Positions 3,339 through 60,050 of a stretch of 64,000 nucleotides of DNA are shown one piece after another. Source of the DNA: a plasmid. Location of the stretch: sequence record CP113993.1; one strand, written 5' to 3'. The notes below the pieces were generated by a model. The model was given only the letters and a program-made list of their open reading frames with translations. It made no database searches and had not been told where the DNA came from. Numbering within the stretch: position 1 is the first letter of the stretch; every line of letters starts with the position of its first letter. The position numbers and the translations under genes are program-made.

Positions 3339-4253
3339 GTGAGTAAGAAGAAGACCACCACGACGCCCACGCCGCATGATGCCGCGTTCCGGTCGTTCCT
3401 GGCGAATCCCGACGTCGCCAGAGATTTTCTGGAACTGCATCTTCCGGCGGAGTACCGGCAGTTGTGCGACCTGTCCACGCTGAAGCTGGAACCCGCCACC
3501 TTTGTTGAGCCGGACCTGCATCAGTACGCCAGCGATATCCTCTGGAGTGTGAAAACCACCGGGGGTGAAGATGGCTATGTTTATACGCTCATCGAGCACC
3601 AGAGCACCGAAAATCTGTACATGCCTTTCCGCATGTTACGTTACAGTGTGGCGGCGATGCAGAGACATCTGGAGCAGCACAAAACGTTGCCACTGGTCAT
3701 TCCGGTGCTGTTCTATCACGGTGAGCGCAGCCCGTACCCGTACAGCATGAACTGGCTGGACTGTTTTGAGAATCCGGCGCTTGCGGCTAAAATATACACA
3801 AAGCCGTTTCCGCTGGTTGATATCACTGTCGTTGATGACAATGAAATCATGAACCATCGCCGGATGGCCGCACTGACGCTGCTGATGAAGCATATCCGCC
3901 ATCGTGACATGATGGAGCTGCTGGACAAACTCCCGCAGGTCATGGTGGAAATTTCAGACGAGCAGGTGCGTGTTCTGATTCATTACATCGTTAACGCAGG
4001 GGACTCTGTATCACCGGAATTTATGCGGGCGCTGGCTGAGCGTCTGCCGCAGCATGAGGATAAACTGATGACTATCGCAGAACGTCTTGAGCAAAAAGGT
4101 CGCCAGGAAGGCAGGATGGAAGGACGCATGGAAGGAGCGCTTGAAAAAGCCCTGGCTATTGCGTGCCAGCTTCAGAAAATGGGGATGACGCCGGAGCAGA
4201 TTAAGCAGGCTACCGGACTTTCCGATGACGAACTGAAGAAAATCACTCACTGA
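3339..4253 (+). CDS. rpn: Rpn-family (YhgA-like) recombination-promoting nuclease / PD-(D/E)xK 'transposase_31' protein, ~304 aa from GTG
   Basis: Motifs D-x-LW...GYVYTLIEHQS, typical of the Rpn/YhgA PD-(D/E)xK core. C-terminal helical tail. AGGAGG precedes GTG at 3339. Confidence 0.7.
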   Translation: MSKKKTTTTPTPHDAAFRSFLANPDVARDFLELHLPAEYRQLCDLSTLKLEPATFVEPDLHQYASDILWSVKTTGGEDGYVYTLIEHQSTENLYMPFRMLRYSVAAMQRHLEQHKTLPLVIPVLFYHGERSPYPYSMNWLDCFENPALAAKIYTKPFPLVDITVVDDNEIMNHRRMAALTLLMKHIRHRDMMELLDKLPQVMVEISDEQVRVLIHYIVNAGDSVSPEFMRALAERLPQHEDKLMTIAERLEQKGRQEGRMEGRMEGALEKALAIACQLQKMGMTPEQIKQATGLSDDELKKITH

Positions 4254-4314
4254 GTAAACATCACAGCCCGGCAAAATGCCGGGCTTTTTTGTCAGCAGGA
4301 GCAGAGCAAACAGC

Positions 4315-4473
4315 ATGACGATTGCAGAACGTCTTATTCAAAAAGGCGCACTTGAAGTGGCGCGGGAAATAGCCTGCCGGCTGCGGGATATGGGCTGGAC
4401 GCCGGAACGGATTCAGGAGGCAACCGGACTTTCCGGTGAAGAACTGAAAAAGCTGTTTCCTGATGAGCAGTAG
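4315..4473 (+). CDS. Rpn C-terminal-tail paralogue fragment (52 aa)
   Basis: MTIAERLIQKGALEVAREIACRLRDMGWTPERIQEATGLSGEELKK parallels the end of the upstream Rpn protein (MTIAERLEQKG...ALAIACQLQKMGMTPEQIKQATGLSDDELKK). Confidence 0.35.
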   Translation: MTIAERLIQKGALEVAREIACRLRDMGWTPERIQEATGLSGEELKKLFPDEQ

Positions 4474-4954: not shown

Positions 4955-5325
4955 TTCAGTCGCGCCGTATGCGGCGCTCCCTGCACACCTTACGGTGTGT
5001 AAGGCCACTGCGCCTGATGGCGCAGCTGTCTCTGCCTGTCTGCCGCCGCACTGCGGCCTGTTCTCCGCAGACGGACTTTCCGGGGGTACATACATGACCA
5101 CATCCCGTTTCAGTCGTCCAGGGGAGAGATGTACCAGCCACAAAACTTTTTGCCGCAGGCGTCAAAAACTTTTGCGTCTGCCCCCGGACAACTGCCCCGT
5201 GACGTGGTGAGCGTCCCCCGTCGGAAAGGTCCACTGCGGGGAAATCCCCGAAGACCCGGACGGCAGAAGGAGCTTCGCTCCTCCGGGAAATGACCTGGCT
5301 GACCCGGCAGTCGTGACGATGAGGA
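4955..5325 (+). promoter_or_regulatory. Frpo/ssi-like single-strand promoter repeat, copy B
   Basis: Paralogue of 2100..2470 in the same orientation. It ends at GAGGAG just before the 5332/5335 start codon. Confidence 0.6.
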
Positions 5326-15826: not shown

Positions 15827-16300
15827 GGTAATTATCGAACTGAGTGCGCCATTCTTTTCAGGAGACGGCAAATTAGAGATGGTTGGTTCAGGTTCAGAGC
15901 ATGAGTTTCCTGGTGTGGCGGACATGCCGGGGTGGATTTTGCAGAGATAACAGATGTAAAAAAACCGACTGGTGAGGTCGGTTTTTTTACTGTTCCGCTA
16001 CAGAGTTGGTGACTCTGGACGGGAAAAGACAGTCTGTATCTAACATGATCAATTCTATGCTTTGTCCCGCACTATGTCAAAAATCCTGCTAATCAAGTAG
16101 TATACAAAACGTTAGCTCTACTGATTGTCTGAACTCGACAACTGACGGATTTGTTAAGTCCTGGCCGGGATAACAGGTGGTGCTGCTTCCGGTGCTCTGG
16201 TCGGAGTGAGGCAGTCTGTATCTAACAATAGAGACAACCGTAGTGACAGGCAGCCCATGAGTAAGCTGCGGTGTTTCGCTCCCTTATCAAGGGAAAACGG

Positions 16301-34800: not shown

Positions 34801-35694
34801 CATCAGCACCGGAAGGCCTGTGGCTTCGTGCAGGGAGGCGGCAGTGGCATAGCCCTCGGCAAACAGCACCGGCTGGCCGTTGCGCGGTGTACCCAGCGCA
34901 AACCAGTTACCGGTTTTCTCGGAATCTTTCAGGATGCGGGCATCCTTCCCGCCGGTGACCGGAATGCGCTGGTAGGAGCGTATTGCGCCGTTACGGTTGC
35001 GGAAAGGAATAACGAGCTCATTTTTGTCGTTTATTCGCACCCCCGGCGCAGCCTGAATGCCTTTCCGGGTCAGGTATTCATGTGCCGTGGCCTGCGGCCA
35101 TTTGTTGACATAGCGGCGGGCATAAGCAGCCTGTCGGTTGTACTGTGCTTTCAGTTCCCGCTCAGCGTCCTCCCTGCGTTGCAGCGAATGCGCTTTCAGG
35201 TGAAGCCTTGCGCGGGGATCTGTCTGCTCTCCGCCGGAGAAGGTCCAGTTGACCGGCGAATCATCCGCGCTGCGATAATCCCTGTACCAGCCGGCAGGTC
35301 TGCCGTCCAGGAAGCCGCGATATGCGCCACTTTTTTGCCCGTTTTTGTCATCGGTGGTCGGAACCCGGTGGATTTTACCGTCCATGGCCGGCAGTTCTTT
35401 CAGAACCAGTCCGGCATTTTCCAGTACCTGGGCAAACTCGGTGACCGGATCACTGCCGTTCATGGAGACTTCCTGCGGTCGGGGCAGCCAGCGGTCCAGC
35501 ATGGACAGGTCCGCCCCCGGGCGGGCAAACCAGAGTTTGTGCTCTTTATCCCAGAGGACGGGCGTGTGCCCGTTCATCGGGGGATGTGCTTTTTTGAGAT
35601 CTTCTATTTCATCTGCAGGCACGGCAAGCCAGGTGCGGTAGCGGGATACAGACGGCATGAGTGCTTCTCCTGAAAAAAGACGGAAAAAAACCAC
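31891..35694 (-). CDS. sog: Sog DNA primase (SogL; an internal in-frame start is expected to give SogS), 1267 aa
   Basis: N-terminal zinc-binding/TOPRIM primase region (VLFAEGYATAASLHEATGLPVLMTVDAGN). A long P/E/T/S-rich linker follows, then a C-terminal domain. Size and position as in IncI1 sog. Confidence 0.85.
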   Translation of the reverse strand: MVFFRLFSGEALMPSVSRYRTWLAVPADEIEDLKKAHPPMNGHTPVLWDKEHKLWFARPGADLSMLDRWLPRPQEVSMNGSDPVTEFAQVLENAGLVLKELPAMDGKIHRVPTTDDKNGQKSGAYRGFLDGRPAGWYRDYRSADDSPVNWTFSGGEQTDPRARLHLKAHSLQRREDAERELKAQYNRQAAYARRYVNKWPQATAHEYLTRKGIQAAPGVRINDKNELVIPFRNRNGAIRSYQRIPVTGGKDARILKDSEKTGNWFALGTPRNGQPVLFAEGYATAASLHEATGLPVLMTVDAGNMIAVAEDARQKWKQSPFIFCADNDHARQVNKGIVSATKAAELTGGSVIFPAFTDAEKAQGLTDFNDLDASRGRAAFQHVINAQLEHIGVSTPNSNTPEIREALVIGNLVFTPVHTEEKTMTPTEYPETSPDTGHSHDQGPSLPSATQQEQPTASSSNIADETLSFTSHATENNGKDERHPDNVQAQTESSVVQDSPAESPASPESTTASAPDEPAHPAEPPEKVVSVATDKDWREFEAELSQPEKNELQQESGTSPEIPAPAAAPAAPEDSPSSETMNESAEPSPSPDAVKEEMTVMTEPDDKQSTGISPDTPREEAVSHVTEDIPLQPEPFLPESDGPEEYEDYSAYQELMNNENPEHLQENSDMPSQPDTGPVQADESELQATTATIEPAVRDEPTPQQPVQSTSPSDNTSSFLDKARGLFTRKKTDSQAHENSDPTPSAETTTTPPIPDSIVYAPERSDAPISLNMDEILKELDWEKRADRTVLYKLDGKPAFIDRVNRLEMVNGASNDDRSVLAALAVATKFYGGVIELTGSDAFKQKAMQLIIEHNIDVRMKLPDQRAELEKLRKEMAVSKDAVVTHQPTPELNRNTPEQPAVPDPVQEKEATQSPASPVAPEASTVSTASAPSPAEPGKTADVAPDEEPPGKLRPGESVTAVLHNFGRAEYAPGKGESFFVELKNRSGSKLYWGEQLESLVKNHQKGDVVTLTLQNREQFILPGEQKARFRNKWSMESVTNGISVSHDNPDKGQRIQAIPVETFMKVAAQISQGWPEEMKALRMPENVGSHLFIGEDRHPVSAPQNANQVTEITSAAPDKLTPVLGSVDKDTRELNLLLVQSADEHLQGVVRLNGTLYPALATPSADNSQLVINALTDKGLRFAGYGEAVNHDADSTNRPAPELMQFHLKTREEPLFAAVYTPEKQPDALYRNLGFEQSWQQWSNSQKPEDRQEKTLHQDLSHSPGR

Positions 35695-37749: not shown

Positions 37750-38564
37750 CGGGAGCCTCCTTCAGTGCCTATAAGCGGACGCCAGTGAGATTTCTGAAGA
37801 TTGAATTCCGCATGATTTTTAAGGCGACGAACACGATCTCCAGTGACCAGTTTTTTCCCGTCACCTGTAACGGTTTGCATTTGATCAGAAACATCCGGAC
37901 GGGTGATCATGCCCTGACGCCAGAGAAGTGAGTACAGCATCATGCCCCGGTAATCACGGGTGAGGGTTTTCTGGTTGGCTTCAAGCGTCAGGTCGGCGTT
38001 TTGTCTTCCTTCCTGCCATCCCTGCCGTAATGCGGTTTCCCACACTTTTCGTTGCACGCTGTCTTCTGGAACGACGCTGCCTTCTGTACCCGGAGTGGCT
38101 GTTGTTGAAAGCCCCCGGAGAAGCCAGTCACGCCAGCCCGGTGGATTGCTGACAAAGCGTTCAGGGCGAATGATGGTCCAGACCCGGGAAGAGGTCCGGA
38201 TTTGATCTGGCGTGATATGAGCTACGTCCTGTGCTTCATCAATAACCGGTGGTAGCCAGCCTTCCGGGCTAATCAGTGGCCGGAAATCGTATAAGGCATT
38301 AAGTGTGCTTTCCCGGGCGTTGAGTGCCTGAATCAGCTCCCATGAACGCTGAGCCTTGCCACCACGAAATCCAAGCGTTTTACCTGCGTCGGTCAGCATT
38401 TTCCAGCGGGTTTCTGACAGACTATCCGGCTTTTCACTTCGTGGTTTAAGCCATGCATTAATGTCAGGTGGTGGCGTATTGACACCACCTGGCGAGATGG
38501 TGGGGGAAGAAGAACAACCAGTAAGCAGTATTACTGGCAAAATGAGAGAGGTGAGTGCTTTCAT
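37746..38564 (-). CDS. traI: outer-membrane lipoprotein TraI (DotC-like), 272 aa
   Basis: Lipobox LLTGCSS. Confidence 0.65.
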   Translation of the reverse strand: MKALTSLILPVILLTGCSSSPTISPGGVNTPPPDINAWLKPRSEKPDSLSETRWKMLTDAGKTLGFRGGKAQRSWELIQALNARESTLNALYDFRPLISPEGWLPPVIDEAQDVAHITPDQIRTSSRVWTIIRPERFVSNPPGWRDWLLRGLSTTATPGTEGSVVPEDSVQRKVWETALRQGWQEGRQNADLTLEANQKTLTRDYRGMMLYSLLWRQGMITRPDVSDQMQTVTGDGKKLVTGDRVRRLKNHAEFNLQKSHWRPLIGTEGGSR

Positions 38565-39019
38565 TTTTTCCGGTTCTCCGGCTGCATGAAGCTGACCTGT
38601 AACAAGCCCGGATATTGATGGATTGTTGCTCTCCAGGCTGTCTGGGCTTCAATAAGTCTCAACGTATTGGAAAACGTCATATCCCGGACGTGAAGGTTGA
38701 CTGGTAACGGCAGGCGGACACCATTGTAGTTAAACTGCATCCCCCTGACTCTGGCCAGTTCGTTCAGTAATTCAATTGCATCACCTTCCCAGTCAAAGGA
38801 AAGGCGATCGCTGTTAGCTGTCAGAAGATGAGACCCCGTTGAAACCGGAAGTTGGCCGGAAAACACACCTTTGTCCCATAATGTGTACTGAGTGTGCCGG
38901 GTAACCGCCACATCAGAGGCAGCACCGTAGTTACGCGGAACAGGAGTATGCTGAGAAGGGGAGTTGCAGCCAGCCAGAAAAAGGGCGGCAAGACACCCCG
39001 CAGGTATAATACGGTTCAT
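38561..39019 (-). CDS. traH: lipoprotein TraH (DotD-like), 152 aa
   Basis: Lipobox FLAGCNS. Confidence 0.6.
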   Translation of the reverse strand: MNRIIPAGCLAALFLAGCNSPSQHTPVPRNYGAASDVAVTRHTQYTLWDKGVFSGQLPVSTGSHLLTANSDRLSFDWEGDAIELLNELARVRGMQFNYNGVRLPLPVNLHVRDMTFSNTLRLIEAQTAWRATIHQYPGLLQVSFMQPENRKK

Positions 39020-39227
39020 AATAATTCCTGAGCAGTTAAATCAGAATGGGATATACCGGTGCTCCGGTACAGACAGGATGATGTTTGTTTCCGGCTATAC
39101 TTGCGTTACCGGAAATAAATGCCAGTGTGGCCAGGTAAATAGCCTCATAGTTTACTGAAGGTGATTATTCCTGATACTGGCTGGTTGATGTGTCGTCAGA
39201 CATAAAACGAATATGAGCGTAATCTTT

Positions 39228-39370
39228 AACGCTCCGCGCCGAATCGATCCATGATGGATGACTCGACGATTTATGAATCGAACGTACCGGCGCTTGTCCC
39301 TGAAACAGTTCCCGGCCCTCGTCCGGATAACCTGCAATTCAGACAGGCACATGTGCCCGTACACTCTTGT
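39228..39370 (-). repeat. ~145-bp leader repeat, copy 1 (upstream of traH)
   Basis: Shares the core AACGCTCCGCGCCGAATCGATCCATGATGG and CTG.AGTTCTGACAGGCA with 56676..56815 and 57738..57885. In minus-strand sense it carries the 8-codon uORF MDRFGAER. Confidence 0.55.
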
Positions 39371-39413
39371 ATCTTACTGAGTATATCAGAATTTATGTAA
39401 ATTCAAATATCCT

Positions 39414-39998
39414 CTATGCCTCTTTGTTGTATTTTCCGTCAAGTATGAGCCGGGTACCATCGTAATGCATGATCAGGGCATCAAGGTACGCCGGTTTGAA
39501 TTTCTTGCCGAGCCTATCTCTGGCCAGAAATGATAAACAATGATTATGTGTCATTATTACTATGTTCCTTTTATGAGATTCTCTTGCGATTGATTCAAGC
39601 GTCTTATAAAGATCATTATTGCAGTCTGATAAACTGTCCATAACGACGGGTTCTTTACCGGAGAAGAATTTTGCAGTTTGTATGGTTCTTACCGCATTGC
39701 TGGAGTAAATATCATATTCACTGAAGATTGTTGCGAACTTAATACCTTCCTGCTGTGCTTTCTCTGTACCGGTAATAGTGATTCCGCTTTTATCCGAATA
39801 GCATGGCATATCTGAACGGTCGCAACGTTCTCCATGGCGGAAAAGGAAAATAACGGTGTTATCAGCATTAATTTCTTTTGCCTGTTCCAGGGTGATATCG
39901 GGAAGCGAGCTTTTTGCTTTTGTCACTGCCGCTACCAGGAAAACAGAAAATAAAAGAATGAATGCTGTTTTTGAATAAGAAGAACGTGGTTTCATCAT
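39414..39998 (-). CDS. traG: secreted histidine-phosphatase superfamily protein (RHG motif), 194 aa, at the traG position
   Basis: Signal peptide. FRHGER motif of the phosphoglycerate-mutase/acid-phosphatase branch. AT-rich relative to its neighbours. Confidence 0.55.
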   Translation of the reverse strand: MMKPRSSYSKTAFILLFSVFLVAAVTKAKSSLPDITLEQAKEINADNTVIFLFRHGERCDRSDMPCYSDKSGITITGTEKAQQEGIKFATIFSEYDIYSSNAVRTIQTAKFFSGKEPVVMDSLSDCNNDLYKTLESIARESHKRNIVIMTHNHCLSFLARDRLGKKFKPAYLDALIMHYDGTRLILDGKYNKEA

Positions 39999-55200: not shown

Positions 55201-55884
55201 TCAGTGTAATGTGATAGTCGTCTGCTCCTGTGTTGCACCCCAGACATCTTCTGGCAGGCTGGGCAGCCCGATAAATAGGGTGTGAAAGAGGGTTTCTCTG
55301 CGTTCGATCCCGAATTGATGTTCGTATCCTCTCACCACCTGAAATCCTTCGTCGGAGAATATTAACTCTGCCGTTTCCAGAAGCTGCATAGTTTTGCGGT
55401 GTAGTGGAGTGATCAGCTGCAACGTAACTGGTGCCCTCATATCGCCTGTCGGTAGAAAACACTCTTCGGTGCGACTTAGTTGTAGCAGATGACGTTTCCC
55501 GGAACAGGCCCGTTCAATGGATTCATTGAACACCCTCTCAGGCCATGGGCAGACATATGTGCGCCAGCCTGCTTTCTGTAATTTACCCAGTGCAGCCCGA
55601 AAACGAAACAACGGACATTCCCCGACAGTGGCAGAGCTGAGAAAGAGCGTATTCAGCGTTCCGATGATGGGAATATTGCGATCTTTTTCGGTCAATGCTT
55701 TTAACGCCATGATTTCGCCAGGGAGACTACGGAACTCAGGATGTCTGCTGGCACCAGAAAGCCATTCAAGCAGGTAATGCCGTAATCCGGTTTCACTGGT
55801 TATATTGTGGTTTTCCTGTGCCGTTTTCAGGGCATTCAGTGCACACCAGAGCAACTGGCGCACGGGATGTTCTGTCGTGGTCAT
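55201..55884 (-). CDS. traC: TraC-like positive regulator of the transfer genes, 227 aa
   Basis: ORF upstream of pilI. Position equivalent to the R64 traABCD regulatory block. Confidence 0.4.
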   Translation of the reverse strand: MTTTEHPVRQLLWCALNALKTAQENHNITSETGLRHYLLEWLSGASRHPEFRSLPGEIMALKALTEKDRNIPIIGTLNTLFLSSATVGECPLFRFRAALGKLQKAGWRTYVCPWPERVFNESIERACSGKRHLLQLSRTEECFLPTGDMRAPVTLQLITPLHRKTMQLLETAELIFSDEGFQVVRGYEHQFGIERRETLFHTLFIGLPSLPEDVWGATQEQTTITLH

Positions 55885-56136
55885 GCGAATGTCCTACTGT
55901 GAGATGAAAAGAAGACCGGTATCCGCTCTCTCCGCCACACGTGATGGCACGGGCCGGCCTTTGATAAAACGAATCAATACTCTGGGGTGAAGCCTTTTAT
56001 TTCTTTCGCCATTAAGAAATACACGATTCCATCAAAAGACAGGGGGAGTCCATGGTGGGGATGGCTTCGTGCAGGCTTCACTCCAGAATATTCTCTGAAT
56101 TGAAAAAAGCCCGGCCCGAAGGCCGGGAAATACTGG

Positions 56137-56691
56137 CTATGGGATGTTTACAAGGCGCTCCATAAAGCCGTGATGTTCGGCATTTGATACCAGTTCCAGG
56201 AGCAGGGATATCCTCGACTCAGGCTGGAGAGTATTTTCCATTCTGAGGAGATACTGATATTGTGCTTTTGTCAGCCATATGCTGGAAGCCGCATTCAGCT
56301 CTTCCCTGGCTCCCGGATTTAGCACAGGGTCCGGGTAAATCTTCATTAATCCATCAACAATATCTTTATTGACGGGTTTTATTTCACCGCCAAACTTCAC
56401 GAAATCAATGAAGGCGCTATGGCGACGTAATGCCGATACTGGTTGAATGTCAAAATTAGCCAGAATAAAAAAGTACCCTGGAAAAATAGCGAATATTCTT
56501 TCACGGTAACAGCGCCTGGAGTCTGCCCGTCTTATCTTTCTTGTTATTAATGGAGTCCATGGTACGACGTTTTGCTCATTCAGCCATGAGAATAAAGATT
56601 CTCTGTTTTTGCCGGCTGTATTATATTGCGCAAGATACCAGTTCCGGTTATTCAGGTGTTCTATATTCACGAAGTTCAACGCTCCGCGCAA
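56137..56691 (-). CDS. traB: RfaH/NusG-paralogue transcription antiterminator (TraB/ActX-like); start uncertain among TTG 56691, an internal TTG and GTG
   Basis: NGN domain pattern NWYLAQYNTAGKNRE...FPGYFFILANFD, followed by a KOW-like C-terminus. Confidence 0.65.
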   Translation of the reverse strand: MRGALNFVNIEHLNNRNWYLAQYNTAGKNRESLFSWLNEQNVVPWTPLITRKIRRADSRRCYRERIFAIFPGYFFILANFDIQPVSALRRHSAFIDFVKFGGEIKPVNKDIVDGLMKIYPDPVLNPGAREELNAASSIWLTKAQYQYLLRMENTLQPESRISLLLELVSNAEHHGFMERLVNIP

Positions 56692-56815
56692 AACCGATCC
56701 ATGATGGACGATTTTGCGATGTCAGGCGAATATGCTAAATCATATGTCTGAAGCAGTGTCCAGCCCATATCTGGATAAACTGCAGTTCTGACAGGCATAT
56801 AACCAGCAGACTCTA
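56676..56815 (-). repeat. ~145-bp leader repeat, copy 2, overlapping the traB start
   Basis: AACGCTCCGCGCAAAACCGATCCATGATGG...CTGCAGTTCTGACAGGCA. In minus-strand sense it carries the uORF MDRFCAER. Confidence 0.55.
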
Positions 56816-57111
56816 GTACGTTCTGTATCGGTGATTTGGCGAACTCACAGATAAAGAACGGCTAAGCACTAATATCAGCAATACAGTGGCACAGTATTGT
56901 GATACGCGAAATAAAACATCAGCACGTCAGTTCAGAGTAAGATCGCCATATATCGGGCATGAGCCAGATACAAATAACTGGGACACCGTCTGAAGTGATT
57001 TGCTTTATTAAAGTAACTTGTGCTTGGTGTTTATGTTTATCAATTTGGGATCGCCTGTAAAGTGCAAAATGCAATTTCCATGAAAGTGTCCCCTTTAATG
57101 GGGACACCTGT

Positions 57112-57399
57112 TCACATTTTTTCGTTTTCTTTAGCTGTATTGCTAATCATGAAAACGAAAGTTCGCATCAGCACAGCAGAGCGAAGTGCATCATATCCTT
57201 CCAGATTTAAATTCTTCAGGCTTCGCTTCAGGTAGGTTCGTACCGTTTCGGGAGAAAGCCGACAGTTCTGAGCAATGGCGTCGTAAGGAACACCCATTGC
57301 GTAAAAAACGCAGACTTTAAGCTGGTTTGTTGATAGCTCGGGAAACATGCCTTCCAACAGAGTGATGGCCGGGAGTTTCTGTATCAGTTGAGGTGACAT
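57112..57399 (-). CDS. LuxR/GerE-type HTH transcriptional regulator, ~95 aa from the ATG at 57399
   Basis: LSTNQLKVCVFYAMGVPYDAIAQNCRLSPETVRTYLKRSL is a canonical LuxR-family HTH. GGAG lies 10 nt upstream of the ATG. Confidence 0.6.
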   Translation of the reverse strand: MSPQLIQKLPAITLLEGMFPELSTNQLKVCVFYAMGVPYDAIAQNCRLSPETVRTYLKRSLKNLNLEGYDALRSAVLMRTFVFMISNTAKENEKM

Positions 57400-57428
57400 A
57401 GCAAAGGTCTCCGATGACAACTAAAAAC

Positions 57429-57470
57429 GCTATCACCGAGTTCCTACGCTCATTGGTGATAGCCCAGACG
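57429..57470 (-). terminator. intrinsic terminator/attenuator hairpin (9-bp stem GCTATCACC/GGTGATAGC followed by a T-run) in the leader of the LuxR-type gene
   Basis: Perfect inverted repeat plus GTTTTTAG in the minus-strand sense. Confidence 0.45.
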
Positions 57471-57737
57471 GGGGTAGGAATACCGGCGTCATCGGAAACC
57501 GGCCAGGCTAATGCCTGCCCCGCCTGAGCTACCATAGATGACGACAAGAAATACAAGTTCCTGTCTTTATGGTATGGCAAAAAACGACGCCAAATGAAGA
57601 AATTAACTTCTGCGCCGACGATGACTACGCGGGTTCCTACGCCCGATCACAGTTTTGCCTGTGACCAGTAAAGGGTACTTAGTATAACGCACCGAGTCAA
57701 CTAACAGCTTAAAAAACATACAAAAAAGCGTCAAAAC

Positions 57738-57885
57738 TTAACGCTCCGCGCCGAAGCGATCCAGGCATGATGCTTCTGCTTTGTGGCGTTCGAACATGCT
57801 GGTCCATATGCACGAAACGGTGTCTGACCCTCGTCCAGACAATCCGCAGTTCTGACGAACATATGAACAAATATGCTCTTGTAGA
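57738..57885 (-). repeat. ~145-bp leader repeat, copy 3
   Basis: AACGCTCCGCGCCGAAGCGATCCAGGCATGATG...CGCAGTTCTGACGAACA. Confidence 0.5.
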
Positions 57886-58196
57886 GGCTGTTGTTACACA
57901 ATTGGCGGGTTGTGTAACAAATGGTTTTATCATCTAAGAATTATTCTATTTACGATCGAATGATCTACAAAATGATTTTTTAAAGGTTTTTTAGATCGTT
58001 TAATTGCATTAAAACAGAATATTATTCTGTTAGGTGGATCGGTTGTAAGATAAATGATCGTGAGTAGGACAAAAGTCGATCTTTTAATCCAAAAGAAGGA
58101 TCTAAAGCAGAAAAATCTGCTTTTAAAAATAGATTTTATTTTTTTGACGCAGGTCAAGATTAACTTATTAGAGGTATCAGTGAGGAGGCACTGGAA

Positions 58197-58234
58197 GGGG
58201 AGCCCGCAGAATTCGGAAAAAATCGTACGCTAAG
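58197..58234. mobile_element. Tn1721/Tn3-family 38-bp terminal inverted repeat (transposon boundary)
   Basis: GGGGAGCCCGCAGAATTCGGAAAAAATCGTACGCTAAG, read directly. It abuts the tnpA 3' end. Confidence 0.8.
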
Positions 58235-60050
58235 GTTTTCCGGGCATCCGTAAGGGCCGAAACTTCCCGTCTTCCAGTCTGCGGCTCTGCCGCCAGACGT
58301 AATCGCCGGTTAGGTTGATGTGCTCCCAGCCCAGCGGCGACAGGAATTGCAGCAGCTCGCCGTCCACCGGCTTGCCGGCCTCGACCAACCCCTGGGTGGC
58401 GCGTTCCAGGTACACCGTGTTCCACAGCACGATAGCCGCCGTCACCAGGTTGAGGCCGCTGGCCCGGTAGCGCTGCTGCTCGAAGCTCCGATCCCTGATT
58501 TCCCCAAGGCGGTTGAAGAACACCGCCCTGGCCAGCGAGTTGCGCGCCTCACCTTTGTTCAGGCCGGCATGCACGCGGCGGCGCAGTTCAACACTTTGCA
58601 GCCAGTCCAGGATGAACAGCGTGCGCTCGATCCGGCCCAGCTCGCGCAGGGCCACGGCCAGTCCGTTCTGGCGCGGGTAGCTGCCGAGCTTGCGCAGCAT
58701 CAGCGAGGCGGTGACGGTGCCCTGCTTGATCGAGCTGGCCAGGCGCAGGATGTCGTCCCAGTGGGCACGCACGTGCTTGATGTTCAGGGTGCCGCCGATC
58801 AGCGGGCGCAACGTCGGGTAGGCTTGCACGCCCTGCGGCACGTACAGCTTGGTTTCGCCGAGGTCGCGGATGCGCGGCGCGAAGCGGAAGCCTAGCAGGT
58901 GCATCAGGGCAAAGACGTGATCGGTGAAGCCGGCCGTGTCGGTGTAGTGCTCCTCGATCCGCAGGTCGGACTCGTGGTACAGCAGGCCGTCGAGCACATA
59001 GGTGGAATCGCGGACGCCGACATTCACCACGCGGGTGCTGAACGGCGCGTACTGGTCGGAGATATGGGTATAGAACAGCCGTCCCGGCTCGCTACCGTAC
59101 TTCGGGTTGACGTGCCCGGTGCTCTCGCCCCGGCCACCCGCGCGGAAGCGCTGGCCATCGGAGGATGAGGTCGTGCCGTCGCCCCAGTGGGCGGCAAAGG
59201 CGTGGCGATACTGGTGGTTGACCAGCTCGGCCAAGGCCGCCGAATAGGTTTCGTCGCGGATGTGCCAGGCTTGCAGCCAGGACAGCTTGGCGTAGGTCAG
59301 GCCGGGGCTCGACTCGGCCATCTTGGTCAGCCCGAGGTTGATCGCATCACCGAGGATTGCGGACAGCAGCAACGTCCTGTCTTTGGCCTCGGCCCCGTCC
59401 TTCAAGTGGGTGAAGTGGCGGCTGAAGCCCGTCCAGTCGTCCACGTCCATCAGCAGTTCGGTGATCTTGATGCGCGGCAGTAACTGGCTGGTTTGGTCGA
59501 TCAGCGCCTGCGCCCGATCCGGCACCGCCGCATCCAGCGGGGTGATTTTCAGCCCTGACTCGGTGAGGATGGCATCGGGCAGCTCGTTGTCCTTGGCCAG
59601 GCGGGTGACGGTGGCCAACTGCTCGTCCAGCAGCTGCAAACGCTCTTCCAGGTACTGGTCGCTGTTCGGGTTGATCGCCAGGGGCAGGGCCTGCTCGCGC
59701 TTGAGTGCGGCGAACTTCTCGGCCGGCAGCAGGTAGTCGTCGAAGTCGCGGAACTGCCGCGAGCCCTTGACCCAGATGTCGCCGGAGCGCAGGGCGTTCT
59801 TCAGCTCGGACAGGGCGCAGATTTCGTAGAATTTCCGGTCGAGGCCTTCCGGGGTGATCACCAGCGGCTTCCAGCGCGGCTTGATGAAGGCCGTGGGTGC
59901 ATCGGCCGGCACCTTGCGCAGGTTGTCGGCGTTCATCTCACGCAGGGTCTGCACGGCTGCCAGCACGCCTTGCGCGGCCGGCCCGTGCTGTTCCCCAACT
60001 TTTCGCTCGGCGAAGAGTATGAACATGCGCCGCCGGCGACGAATCGCCAA
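58230..60050 (-). pseudogene. tnpA: 3'-partial Tn3-family transposase tnpA (C-terminal ~600 aa), as in the Tn1721 tet module
   Basis: Strong Tn3/Tn21-family TnpA C-terminal similarity. The N-terminal ~400 aa are missing. Confidence 0.8.

Follow-up and report, generated by a model that had tools for sequence, protein, structure and literature searches.

A structured leader element, present once before traB in TraB-type plasmids and three times in IncI1, as a candidate loading site for the NusG paralogue TraB

How a plasmid-encoded relative of RfaH finds the operons that it serves is the question raised by a 64,000-nt stretch of plasmid DNA (sequence record CP113993.1; hereafter the window), in which the gene for the NusG paralogue TraB stands among three copies of an element of about 145 bp. 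Positions 56000–58250 of the window match a 320-kb Salmonella plasmid at 100% identity and many IncI1 plasmids at 99%, with the genes there annotated as encoding a NusG-family protein and TraA, from which we conclude that the window holds the IncI1-type transfer region of a pESI-like megaplasmid. An original prediction, made by a model that saw only the DNA, had proposed that the repeat recruits the TraB-type factor to the transfer operons. Our analysis defines the repeat as a structured, cis-regulatory-type RNA element with compensatory substitutions on the transcribed strand. We give about an even chance to the reading that it is the transcribed 5′ leader of the traB operon and a pause-and-load site for antitermination by TraB, duplicated in IncI1.

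Pairwise comparison, a repeat finder, MAFFT, nhmmer and a covariance model (CM) were applied to the window. The repeat finder returned a single family of three members with a 46-nt seed (at 39225, 56675 and 57737). The profile and CM searches placed all copies on the minus strand with E ≤ 4e-29, namely copy 1 at 39222–39373, between traG and traH (CM 123.8 bits, E 6e-31), copy 2 at 56672–56820, directly 5′ of traB (CM (R1) 116.8 bits, E 4e-29; also found by nhmmer), and copy 3 at 57734–57885 (CM 122.8 bits, E 1e-30). No fourth or degenerate copy was found by nhmmer and the CM in the 64 kb, the next match having an E value of 7.7, and searches of 30–50 kb in three related tra regions likewise yielded no additional one. 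The copies are 69–74% identical in pairs, and the multiple alignment that the original prediction had called for, made with MAFFT in the mRNA (minus-strand) sense, covers about 150 nt with a mean column identity of 75%. The three copies lie essentially where they had been reported and share one orientation, which is the sense orientation, at the heads of transcription units. Copy 2 begins with TGCG and not with GGCG as had been read. Copy 3 had been placed at the head of the leader of a LuxR-type gene; it does lie upstream of that gene, traA, but about 335 nt from its ATG, and a terminator-like hairpin and a C4-antisense-RNA module stand between the two. A scan of the whole window with Rfam 15 at gathering score, JUMPstart, traJ leaders and C4 included, found no family covering the copies, and at E ≤ 1 no family overlapped copy 2 or copy 3 within 56600–58100.

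The copies share a predicted fold in the mRNA sense. RNAalifold gave a long hairpin of about 87 nt (H1) and a shorter one of about 32 nt (H2), with compensatory changes in 11 of 45 pairs, and a 12-nt core follows directly after H2. The predicted H1, H2 and core occupy 39366–39280, 39268–39237 and 39239–39228 in copy 1, 56813–56728, about 56718–56687 and 56689–56678 in copy 2, and 57878–57792, about 57781–57750 and 57751–57740 in copy 3 (minus strand throughout). When 13 diverse leaders were compared, 17 of the 33 consensus pairs of H1 and H2 showed double-sided changes. The proportion of paired cells was 87.9%, compared with 79.1 ± 1.1% in shuffles, none of 500 shuffles reached the observed values, and only 31–40% of cells were paired when the partners were slid by 1–3 columns. 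In 10 of 12 sequences the sense strand gives a more stable fold than its complement, and many pairs are G-U, indicating that the structure belongs to the sense RNA. An antisense-RNA reading was rejected because the sense strand folds better, the structure depends on G-U pairs and there is no terminator at the far end.

Within H1, the 5′ internal loop is conserved in sequence (UCAGAACU), and the apical part is replaced or shortened in several clades (L002, L013 and L091; clades and loci are given here by their L numbers). A third hairpin, H0, unseen by the original prediction, lies 8–25 nt upstream of H1 and combines variable stems with a conserved loop, YCCGCCA. It is present in copy 2 (56831–56848, minus strand; a weak GTGA/TCAC hairpin with the loop GTTCGCCAAA), in copy 3 (57891–57920, minus strand; an 11-bp hairpin with the loop CCCGCCAA, −11.7 kcal/mol, z −4.6) and in all relatives, and is absent from copy 1. 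In some clades the core (GGCG/GCGG) has 4–6 nt of complementarity to the H0 loop (CCGCC), but the pseudoknot that these could form was not used, as the H0 loop is invariant where the core differs, leaving no covariation in its favour. Pairing of GAAC in the H1 internal loop with the invariant TTCG was rejected because TTCG sits in the basal stem. The tetranucleotide GATC is nearly invariant inside the 3′ arm of H2.

The core, GCGCGGAGCGTT, is identical in copies 1, 2 and 3. Allowing one mismatch, the whole window holds three matches to it where 0.58 would be expected, and none lies outside the copies. Together with the 3′ arm of H2, this single-stranded core is the most conserved block of the element, and its general form is GC-GC[GRA]GC-GTT. 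GCGCGGAGCGTT is the IncI1 variant, TCGCGGAGCGTT that of IncK2/Z, GTGCGGAGCCTT that of the L002 clade and GGGCGAGAGCAT that of the L006 clade, while the L078 and L091 clades have GCGCGAAGCGTT, with neither GGAG nor a Shine-Dalgarno (SD) sequence. Constant across all six clades is GC[GRA]GC or GC[GAGA]GC followed by two or three bases, mostly GTT. Conservation of the core only as an SD sequence is excluded by two clades, in which GGAG is lost through a change of G to A. Across the core variants, the distance from the conserved end of H2 to the last U of the core is fixed at 11–12 nt. A spacing of 11–12 nt between hairpin and RNA 3′ end is that of a hairpin-stabilised pause, and the arrangement of H2 and core is a pause-hairpin geometry that had been overlooked along with the covarying structure. 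If the pause falls at the second U, G−10 and U−1 fit the pause signal (G−10, Y−1, G+1, with TG at ops positions 11–12), and position +1 varies (A, G or C); the hairpin ending 11–12 nt upstream could compensate for the variable +1.

DNA folding suggests that, in the core, the non-template strand can form a small hairpin presenting one or two loop bases. With standard DNA parameters, the fold energy is −2.1 kcal/mol, compared with −0.9 for ops, the site recognised by RfaH, and −2.5 for the mapped site of the IncX3 PrfaH. In copy 2 (56678–56689, minus strand), the proposed mini-hairpin GC[GGA]GC is followed by the GTT pause, and the GTG of traB comes 8 nt further on. According to Hirao and colleagues, d(GCGAAGC) and other GNA-triloop sequences reportedly form unusually stable DNA mini-hairpins. 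In the RfaH complex, ops forms a non-template hairpin with the loop G4–A7 and the pair C3:G8 that is required for recruitment (PMC5995543). The core had been described as an imperfect relative of ops. The architecture of a GC stem, a G..A loop and a following GT is common to both, ops reading G-GC[GGTA]GC-GTG, but the linear match to the ops consensus GGCGGTAGCGTG is weak, with 7 of 12 positions ungapped and 10 of 12 when one indel is introduced. No canonical ops was found at any operon head in a scan of the window, which gave six matches at two mismatches where 4.55 would be expected. As the ops consensus is not matched, the core is not an RfaH ops and at most a TraB-specific analogue. When the TraB residues at the RfaH contacts with ops (23, 24 and 71) were compared with the type of loop, a pattern was present, which is confounded by phylogeny and subject to an uncertain alignment of alpha-1, and was taken as a hint only.

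The element is tied to the gene that it precedes. The gene traB (56137–56670, minus strand; 177 aa) starts with the GTG at 56670, as judged from the conserved N-terminus MNIE... and from the RefSeq annotation of pESBL. The TTG at 56691, which opens the mechanical open reading frame (ORF) and had been taken as the start, is not the true one, and the element abuts the traB start instead of overlapping it. The assignment of the adjacent gene to the RfaH family was supported by Pfam, NCBIfam and PDB alike. TraB matches the Pfam NusG NGN domain at 4e-5 and the NCBIfam RfaH profile at 4.5e-11 over 151 of 159 positions, with a score far below the equivalog cut-off. Its closest solved relative is the RfaH-named PDB chain 9ik0 (2e-12), which we take to be the IncX3 PrfaH structure, and E. 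coli RfaH is matched at 4e-4 over residues 10–167, including the motif of the C-terminal domain (CTD; ESRISLLLELV vs EARSMLLLNLI). These matches show TraB to be a full-length RfaH-like protein with both domains. Across relatives, the start of traB is often weak (GTG, TTG or no SD).

Ten nucleotides after the traB stop, and before traC (55201–55884, minus strand; an essential co-regulator (PMC4288162) with no family match), there is a strong intrinsic terminator (56110–56127, minus strand), CCCGGCCTTCGGGCCGGG followed by CTTTTTT, with the stem-loop CCCGGCC-TTCG-GGCCGGG. A strong intrinsic terminator stands directly after traB in four of the five clades scanned (IncI1, IncK2/Z, L003 and L082), with differing sequence, and the L006 case is not clear-cut. 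This terminator, conserved in position, had also been missed.

Homologues of TraB were found in 3,368 plasmid records. Copy 1 was found at ≥80% coverage in about 1,370 plasmid records, all of them IncI1-like. In more than 1,300 plasmid records the repeats occur only at tra leaders, and all TraB loci have the element. We compared 90 loci with TraB relatives that are 50–99% identical, drawn from plasmids, genomes and metagenomes. Wherever a locus extended far enough upstream, a single copy of the element was present, ending 2–12 nt before the traB start; the leader of the L091 clade is weak by model (E about 0.02) and plain by eye. No second copy was found outside IncI1, including in the 20–38 kb of tra region searched in L001–L003, which indicates that copy 2 is the orthologous leader and that copies 1 and 3 are duplicates of the IncI1 lineage. 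The single-copy state, not noticed before, is the ancestral one. Copy 1, which is IncI1-specific, always follows traG, a PmrG-like phosphatase gene that is absent from IncK2/Z. In the window, traG (39414–39998, minus strand) matches a lipopolysaccharide core heptose(II)-phosphate phosphatase (NCBIfam NF011945, 2e-88); in IncK2/Z, where copy 1 is missing, traF adjoins traH. The leaders of other plasmids are 72–75% identical to the IncI1 copies, similar to the identity among the IncI1 copies themselves. Copies as divergent from one another as from the leaders of other plasmids suggest that the duplications are old and that each copy has been maintained, and the retention of folds and core despite this divergence indicates that each IncI1 copy is under selection.

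Taking together the RfaH-like TraB, the geometry of core and H2 and the terminator after traB, we consider a pause-and-load site to be the best reading of the element. We infer that transcription would start from an upstream promoter and that polymerase pausing, TraB binding and antitermination would take place at the leader. RNA polymerase would transcribe H1 and then H2, and H2 would form 11–12 nt behind the RNA 3′ end and help to retain the polymerase where the core ends in ...AGCGU(U). The mini-hairpin of the core would be the counterpart of the GC[GGTA]GC hairpin of ops, recognised by the N-terminal domain of TraB, and the TraB-modified polymerase would read through the strong terminator after traB into traC-pil. 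In IncI1, the loading module would have been duplicated before traH-traY (copy 1) and before the C4/traA regulatory module (copy 3). Copy 1 is followed by traH as the first gene (38561–39019, minus strand; DotD family in Pfam), and downstream of copy 3 and the C4 module lies traA (57112–57399, minus strand), which encodes a small regulator of LuxR/sigma-70-region-4 type (PMC5801416). Each duplicate has its own weak hairpin or terminator behind it, the core serving as the 5′ arm in both: GAGCGT/ACGCTC with a weak T-rich tail after copy 1 (39215–39234, minus strand), and a terminator-like hairpin, GGAGCGTTAAGTTTTGACGCTTT then TTTGTATGTT, after copy 3 (57725–57747, minus strand). The units behind them would become TraB-dependent and a positive feedback loop would be closed. 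The published genetics fits this antitermination picture: traBC is essential for transfer (PMC4288162), loss of traB in pESI lowers the pilV, pilS and pilT transcripts and abolishes conjugation (PMC5013300), and TraA activates traB expression, with reporter data placing the traB promoter elements upstream, not resolved to the base (PMC5801416).

Several points weigh against a pause-and-load site. The orientation of the copies and their position before a first gene fit a transcribed leader in all three cases, but consensus sigma-70 scans near the copies were negative or ambiguous and gave no convincing promoter; two candidates picked by hand, TTGAAT-15-TATACT upstream of copy 1 and TTGTAG-16-TAGAAT upstream of the copy 3 H0, are weak, and no weight was placed on them. 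The hairpins that follow copies 1 and 3 fold no more stably than shuffled sequence (z about −0.5), and in the IncI1 variant L033 the copy 3 hairpin is weakened. The ungapped likeness of the core to ops is low, as given above, and RfaH itself is poor at overriding intrinsic terminators (PMC7819879). In the L002 clade, the GGAG of the core lies at SD distance, 5 nt before the traB ATG, and in the L006 clade the core is degenerate, so part of the core conservation could be translational. Finally, a 12-nt DNA site needs no 130 nt of conserved RNA, and H1 and H0 therefore do something else. Their roles lie outside the pause-and-load model, and a contribution at the RNA level is a serious rival or complement to it.

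In place of a DNA site, the leader could contain an antitermination signal that acts in cis as RNA, after the manner of nut, put, EAR or the LoaP hairpins; H0, H1 and H2 would then be bound by the CTD of TraB, by TraC or by a host factor and tethered to the polymerase. Some 130 nt of conserved structure with compensatory changes and with conserved loops (UCAGAACU in H1 and CCGCC in H0) exceeds what ops needs, and traC is essential (PMC4288162) and matches no known family. Moreover, RNA hairpins are the proposed target of LoaP, itself a NusG paralogue (PMC11685472) and a factor that overrides terminators of the intrinsic (hairpin) type (PMC7819879), and the terminators behind the copies are intrinsic. 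We nevertheless regard an RNA signal of this kind as unlikely, since the best-conserved block is the single-stranded core with the 3′ arm of H2 and not a hairpin loop, copy 1 is without H0, the H1 apex is replaced or shortened in the three clades named above, and the C-terminal region of TraB aligns with that of RfaH, a CTD for which RNA binding is not known. More unlikely again is a leader that governs the translation or mRNA stability of traB (a ribosome-binding-site switch, a thermosensor or a stabilising 5′ structure), with the extra IncI1 copies as by-products of rearrangement. Such a leader would account for the GGAG that the L002 clade has 5 nt before its ATG; the GGAG-bearing core can be sequestered in alternative small hairpins (GGUUC...GAGCC), the copy 2 core can pair with the GTG start region, traB starts are often weak, and conjugation of a pESI-type plasmid is temperature dependent (PMC5013300). 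However, no start codon lies at ribosome-binding distance from copies 1 and 3, and these have retained H1, H2 and an identical core while diverging by about 30% elsewhere, the core GCGCGAAGCGTT of the L078 and L091 clades is without an SD, and the alternative pairings show no covariation.

The remaining alternatives are weaker. The original prediction had reported a conserved upstream ORF (uORF), which reads as described in copy 1 (39252–39226; MDRFGAER, then a stop) and copy 2 (56702–56676; MDRFCAER, then a stop), and its translation might govern whether a hairpin or terminator further downstream forms, or be coupled to the start of traB. L078, L082 and L084 have related ORFs (MDQF.AKR...), some of them fused to or overlapping the traB ATG; the copy 2 uORF ends 5 nt before the GTG, and the stops lie at the foot of downstream hairpins. 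Its conservation did not hold up, however: the uORF is absent from five clades (IncK2/Z, L002, L006, L079 and L091), there is no ATG at that position in IncK2/Z, L002/L003, L006, L009 and L079/L081, and the reading frame is a different one in copy 3 and L091. The uORF ATG, which lies inside H2 (in its loop or apical stem), has no SD before it, and the substitutions are equally explained by base pairing. The uORF was rejected as a family feature because it is not conserved among the traB leaders of the clades compared, and no conserved translatable uORF governing alternative hairpins, as expected of a leader-peptide attenuator, was found among them. Attenuation is thus barely plausible, and a lineage-specific coupling role of the uORF in copy 2 is possible. 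It is highly improbable that copy 3 (and perhaps also copy 1) forms a small RNA gene of its own, running from H0 to the core and ending at its own terminator, to act as a trans decoy for whatever binds the traB leader or, through the CCGCCAA loop, on a replication-control RNA. A hairpin and U-run lie within 10 nt of copy 3, its H0 loop CCCGCCAA matches the loop motif of Inc/CopA-type antisense RNAs, the PK-repZ/PK-repBA region adjoins the leader in relatives, and Tn insertions next to copy 3 alter plasmid copy number (PMC4288162). On the other hand, the copy 3 terminator is weak, and the structure in the single-copy relatives runs into traB without a terminator, which points to an ancestral role in cis. 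Effectively refuted is the notion, named in the original prediction as its possible undoing, that the repeats are remnants of an insertion sequence end, a miniature inverted-repeat transposable element or a repetitive extragenic palindromic element without a regulatory role. Nothing speaks for it beyond repetition itself, whereas the 64 kb hold just three copies, without terminal inverted repeats, in a single orientation and always at tra leaders, the plasmid records show the element only there and in all TraB loci, and its substitutions preserve structure.

Returning to a pause-and-load site for TraB, the traB locus presents a putative loading site, an antiterminator gene, a terminator and a long operon in this order. 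In phage lambda, the order pL-nutL-N-tL1 sets the antiterminator gene between its loading site and the first terminator. The lambda N-nut, HK022 put and LoaP-hairpin systems thus resemble the traB leader in the placement of the antiterminator gene and in a structured leader RNA. Their signals act as RNA, whereas the best-conserved part of the traB leader looks like a DNA-read, ops-type site, and the leader differs from the lambda N-nut type in having no boxA, boxB or Rfam match. The RfaH/ops system of E. coli and the TraB system both have a specialised NusG paralogue and a site, putative in the case of TraB, in an operon leader. Both sites can form a non-template stem of two GC pairs closed by G..A and followed by GT and a pause position, which is a predicted one for TraB, and the first downstream genes of both systems have a weak SD or none. 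In contrast to ops, the TraB core has a loop that is one base shorter and is without the flipped-out T6 that RfaH reads, and the TraB residues aligned to the T6 pocket differ (H20 to W and R23 to E/D). Whereas ops is a hairpin-less class II pause, the TraB core is preceded by a nascent-RNA hairpin and, unlike ops, is embedded in about 130 nt of conserved RNA structure with the factor encoded immediately downstream.

A closer precedent comes from the IncX3 PrfaH (ActX class), which binds a non-template-strand hairpin in its own 5′ untranslated region (PMC11880322). Like TraB, PrfaH is a plasmid RfaH paralogue encoded by the first gene of a transfer operon, with its target (a proposed one for TraB) in its own leader; the non-template stem-loop is required and the factor is needed for conjugation. 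The PrfaH site TCGGGGTCATCCGAG differs from the TraB core in its unrelated sequence, 3-bp stem and 6-nt loop, and is a single copy for which neither a large conserved RNA structure nor duplication to other operons has been reported. The UpxY/opsX systems of Bacteroides (PMC11685472) also resemble the TraB arrangement: the paralogue is encoded first, an ops-like site lies just 5′ of the start codon (at +9 or +41), and a nascent-RNA pause hairpin reaching −12 to −9 is combined with readout of non-template DNA, as proposed here. They differ in phylum and sequences and in the involvement of the inhibitor UpxZ, and UpxY has one site per operon with many pairs of paralogue and site, whereas TraB would be one factor with three sites. 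In the literature searched on plasmid RfaH paralogues, the IncX3 site was the only mapped one found. The literature on IncI1 and R64 traB, with the 1993 paper on R64 traABCD outside the coverage, held no description of the repeat or of a TraB site. Kim et al. are said to have mapped a traA promoter in 1993.

The surroundings of copy 3 yielded a second regulatory module. The Hft (high-frequency transfer) region of pESBL (35394–35663, 270 bp; PMC4288162) corresponds to 57422–57691 of the window (minus strand), between copy 3 and traA. At its ends are a C4 antisense RNA (57452–57539; Rfam, 77.5 bits) and a c4-a1b1-like motif (57626–57678; 32.9 bits, below threshold), in agreement with the enrichment of insertions reported for both ends. 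The ribosome-binding region of traA, GUCAUCGGAGA (57418–57408), is complementary to the C4 loop, UUUCCGAUGAC. Given these two ends and the complementarity to the traA SD, Hft looks, from its sequence, like a c4 module of the phage P1 immI type that represses traA, a reading not made in the accounts of Hft that were examined. If true, the module would explain why insertions at either end of Hft derepress transfer, and the mapping of this ‘superspreader’ region onto a C4 module offers a mechanistic lead for that phenotype.

Relatives and variants add to the picture of this region. The record of the R64 drd-11 plasmid (NC_005014.1, L096) has specific substitutions at 57528, in the basal stem of the C4 RNA, at 57438, one base after the GUAGGAA complementary to the C4 3′ tail, and at 57225, where codon 59 of traA changes from CGA to TGA; either 57528 or 57438 is presumably the published ‘X2’ mutation. 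The same record has a 1-nt deletion at 57887 (CAGCCTC to CAGCTC), between H0 and H1 of copy 3, which is absent from the 22 others among 23 IncI1-type loci. Poidevin et al. sequenced about 600 bp and suspected further drd-11 mutations, and 57887 lies outside that stretch; the deletion could equally be a lineage polymorphism or a sequencing error. In L078, L079, L082 and L084, whose TraB is 53–55% identical, a C4 RNA lies upstream of the single traB leader (at about 490–730 and 935–1231 of the loci). L079, L082 and L084 also have isrK- or a1b1-type matches, and in L082, for which ORFs were listed, a traA homologue stands directly upstream of the traB leader. The L078 clade has C4 and traA before the traB leader with no copy like copy 3. 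The presence of C4 and traA before the leader in so distant a clade suggests that the order C4-traA-leader-traB is old and that only copy 3 is IncI1-specific.

Just upstream of H0 and copy 3, seven GATC sites lie within 200 bp (57924–58123), more densely clustered than anywhere else in the window, where 200 bp hold 0.62 on average, and GATC-rich stretches also occur 5′ of the leader in IncK2/Z and the L002 clade; control of a promoter near copy 3 by Dam or SeqA is possible. Beside the traB leader, a divergent PK-repZ/PK-repBA region is found in IncK2/Z, L003, L006, L009, L011, L012 and L091. The H0 loop (C)CGCCAA (57891–57920 and 56831–56848; 11855–11880 in L001) is the loop motif of Inc/CopA-type replication antisense RNAs and is complementary to the UUGGCGG loop of the repZ/repBA leader (11219–11370 in L001), so that cross-talk between the transfer leader and copy-number control is conceivable. 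Similarity to IncI1 ends near 58195, and beyond it (58230–60050) thousands of unrelated plasmids match, at a Tn3-family TnAs1 transposase end. This break indicates that the IncI1 replicon usually found beside copy 3 has been replaced by a transposon here, and the Rfam scan of the window gave no match to PK-repZ. Elsewhere in the window, Rfam gives a match to AgrB at 15956–16043 (minus strand; 57 bits, above gathering score), direct repeats 87–94% identical lie about 2.85 kb apart (2105–2390 and 4959–5249; families D3, D4, D5 and D10), and the repeat finder gave a tandem-like pair of 211–247 bp at 4068–4451.

These pieces could belong to one larger design, which we regard as very unlikely when its parts are taken jointly. 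H0, H1, H2 and core would form a two-part signal, a nascent RNA cofactor combined with the non-template DNA mini-hairpin, that loads TraB, possibly with TraC, and the three IncI1 copies would wire a bistable switch. Copy 3 would gate the C4/traA derepression module, copy 2 would gate read-through of the terminator after traB, and copy 1 would reload the factor for traH-traY. The H0 loop CCGCCAA, as the recognition loop of a replication-control antisense RNA, would couple the switch to the neighbouring replicon, and the upstream GATC cluster would link it to how DNA is methylated just after replication or transfer. If true, such a switch could account for the transitory derepression classically seen in IncI1 transfer.

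Among the major vehicles of extended-spectrum beta-lactamase and other resistance genes are IncI1 and related I-complex plasmids. Their transfer depends absolutely on TraB and TraC, and how TraB finds its operons is undescribed in the literature searched. The 12-nt core, the pause hairpin and the terminator provide precise targets for mutation and templates with which to study antitermination control of conjugation. If the pause-and-load reading is true, it would extend the range of non-template hairpins read by NusG paralogues to a GNA triloop, and the IncI1 copies would be a case in which the loading module of a single factor has been duplicated, rewiring several operons.

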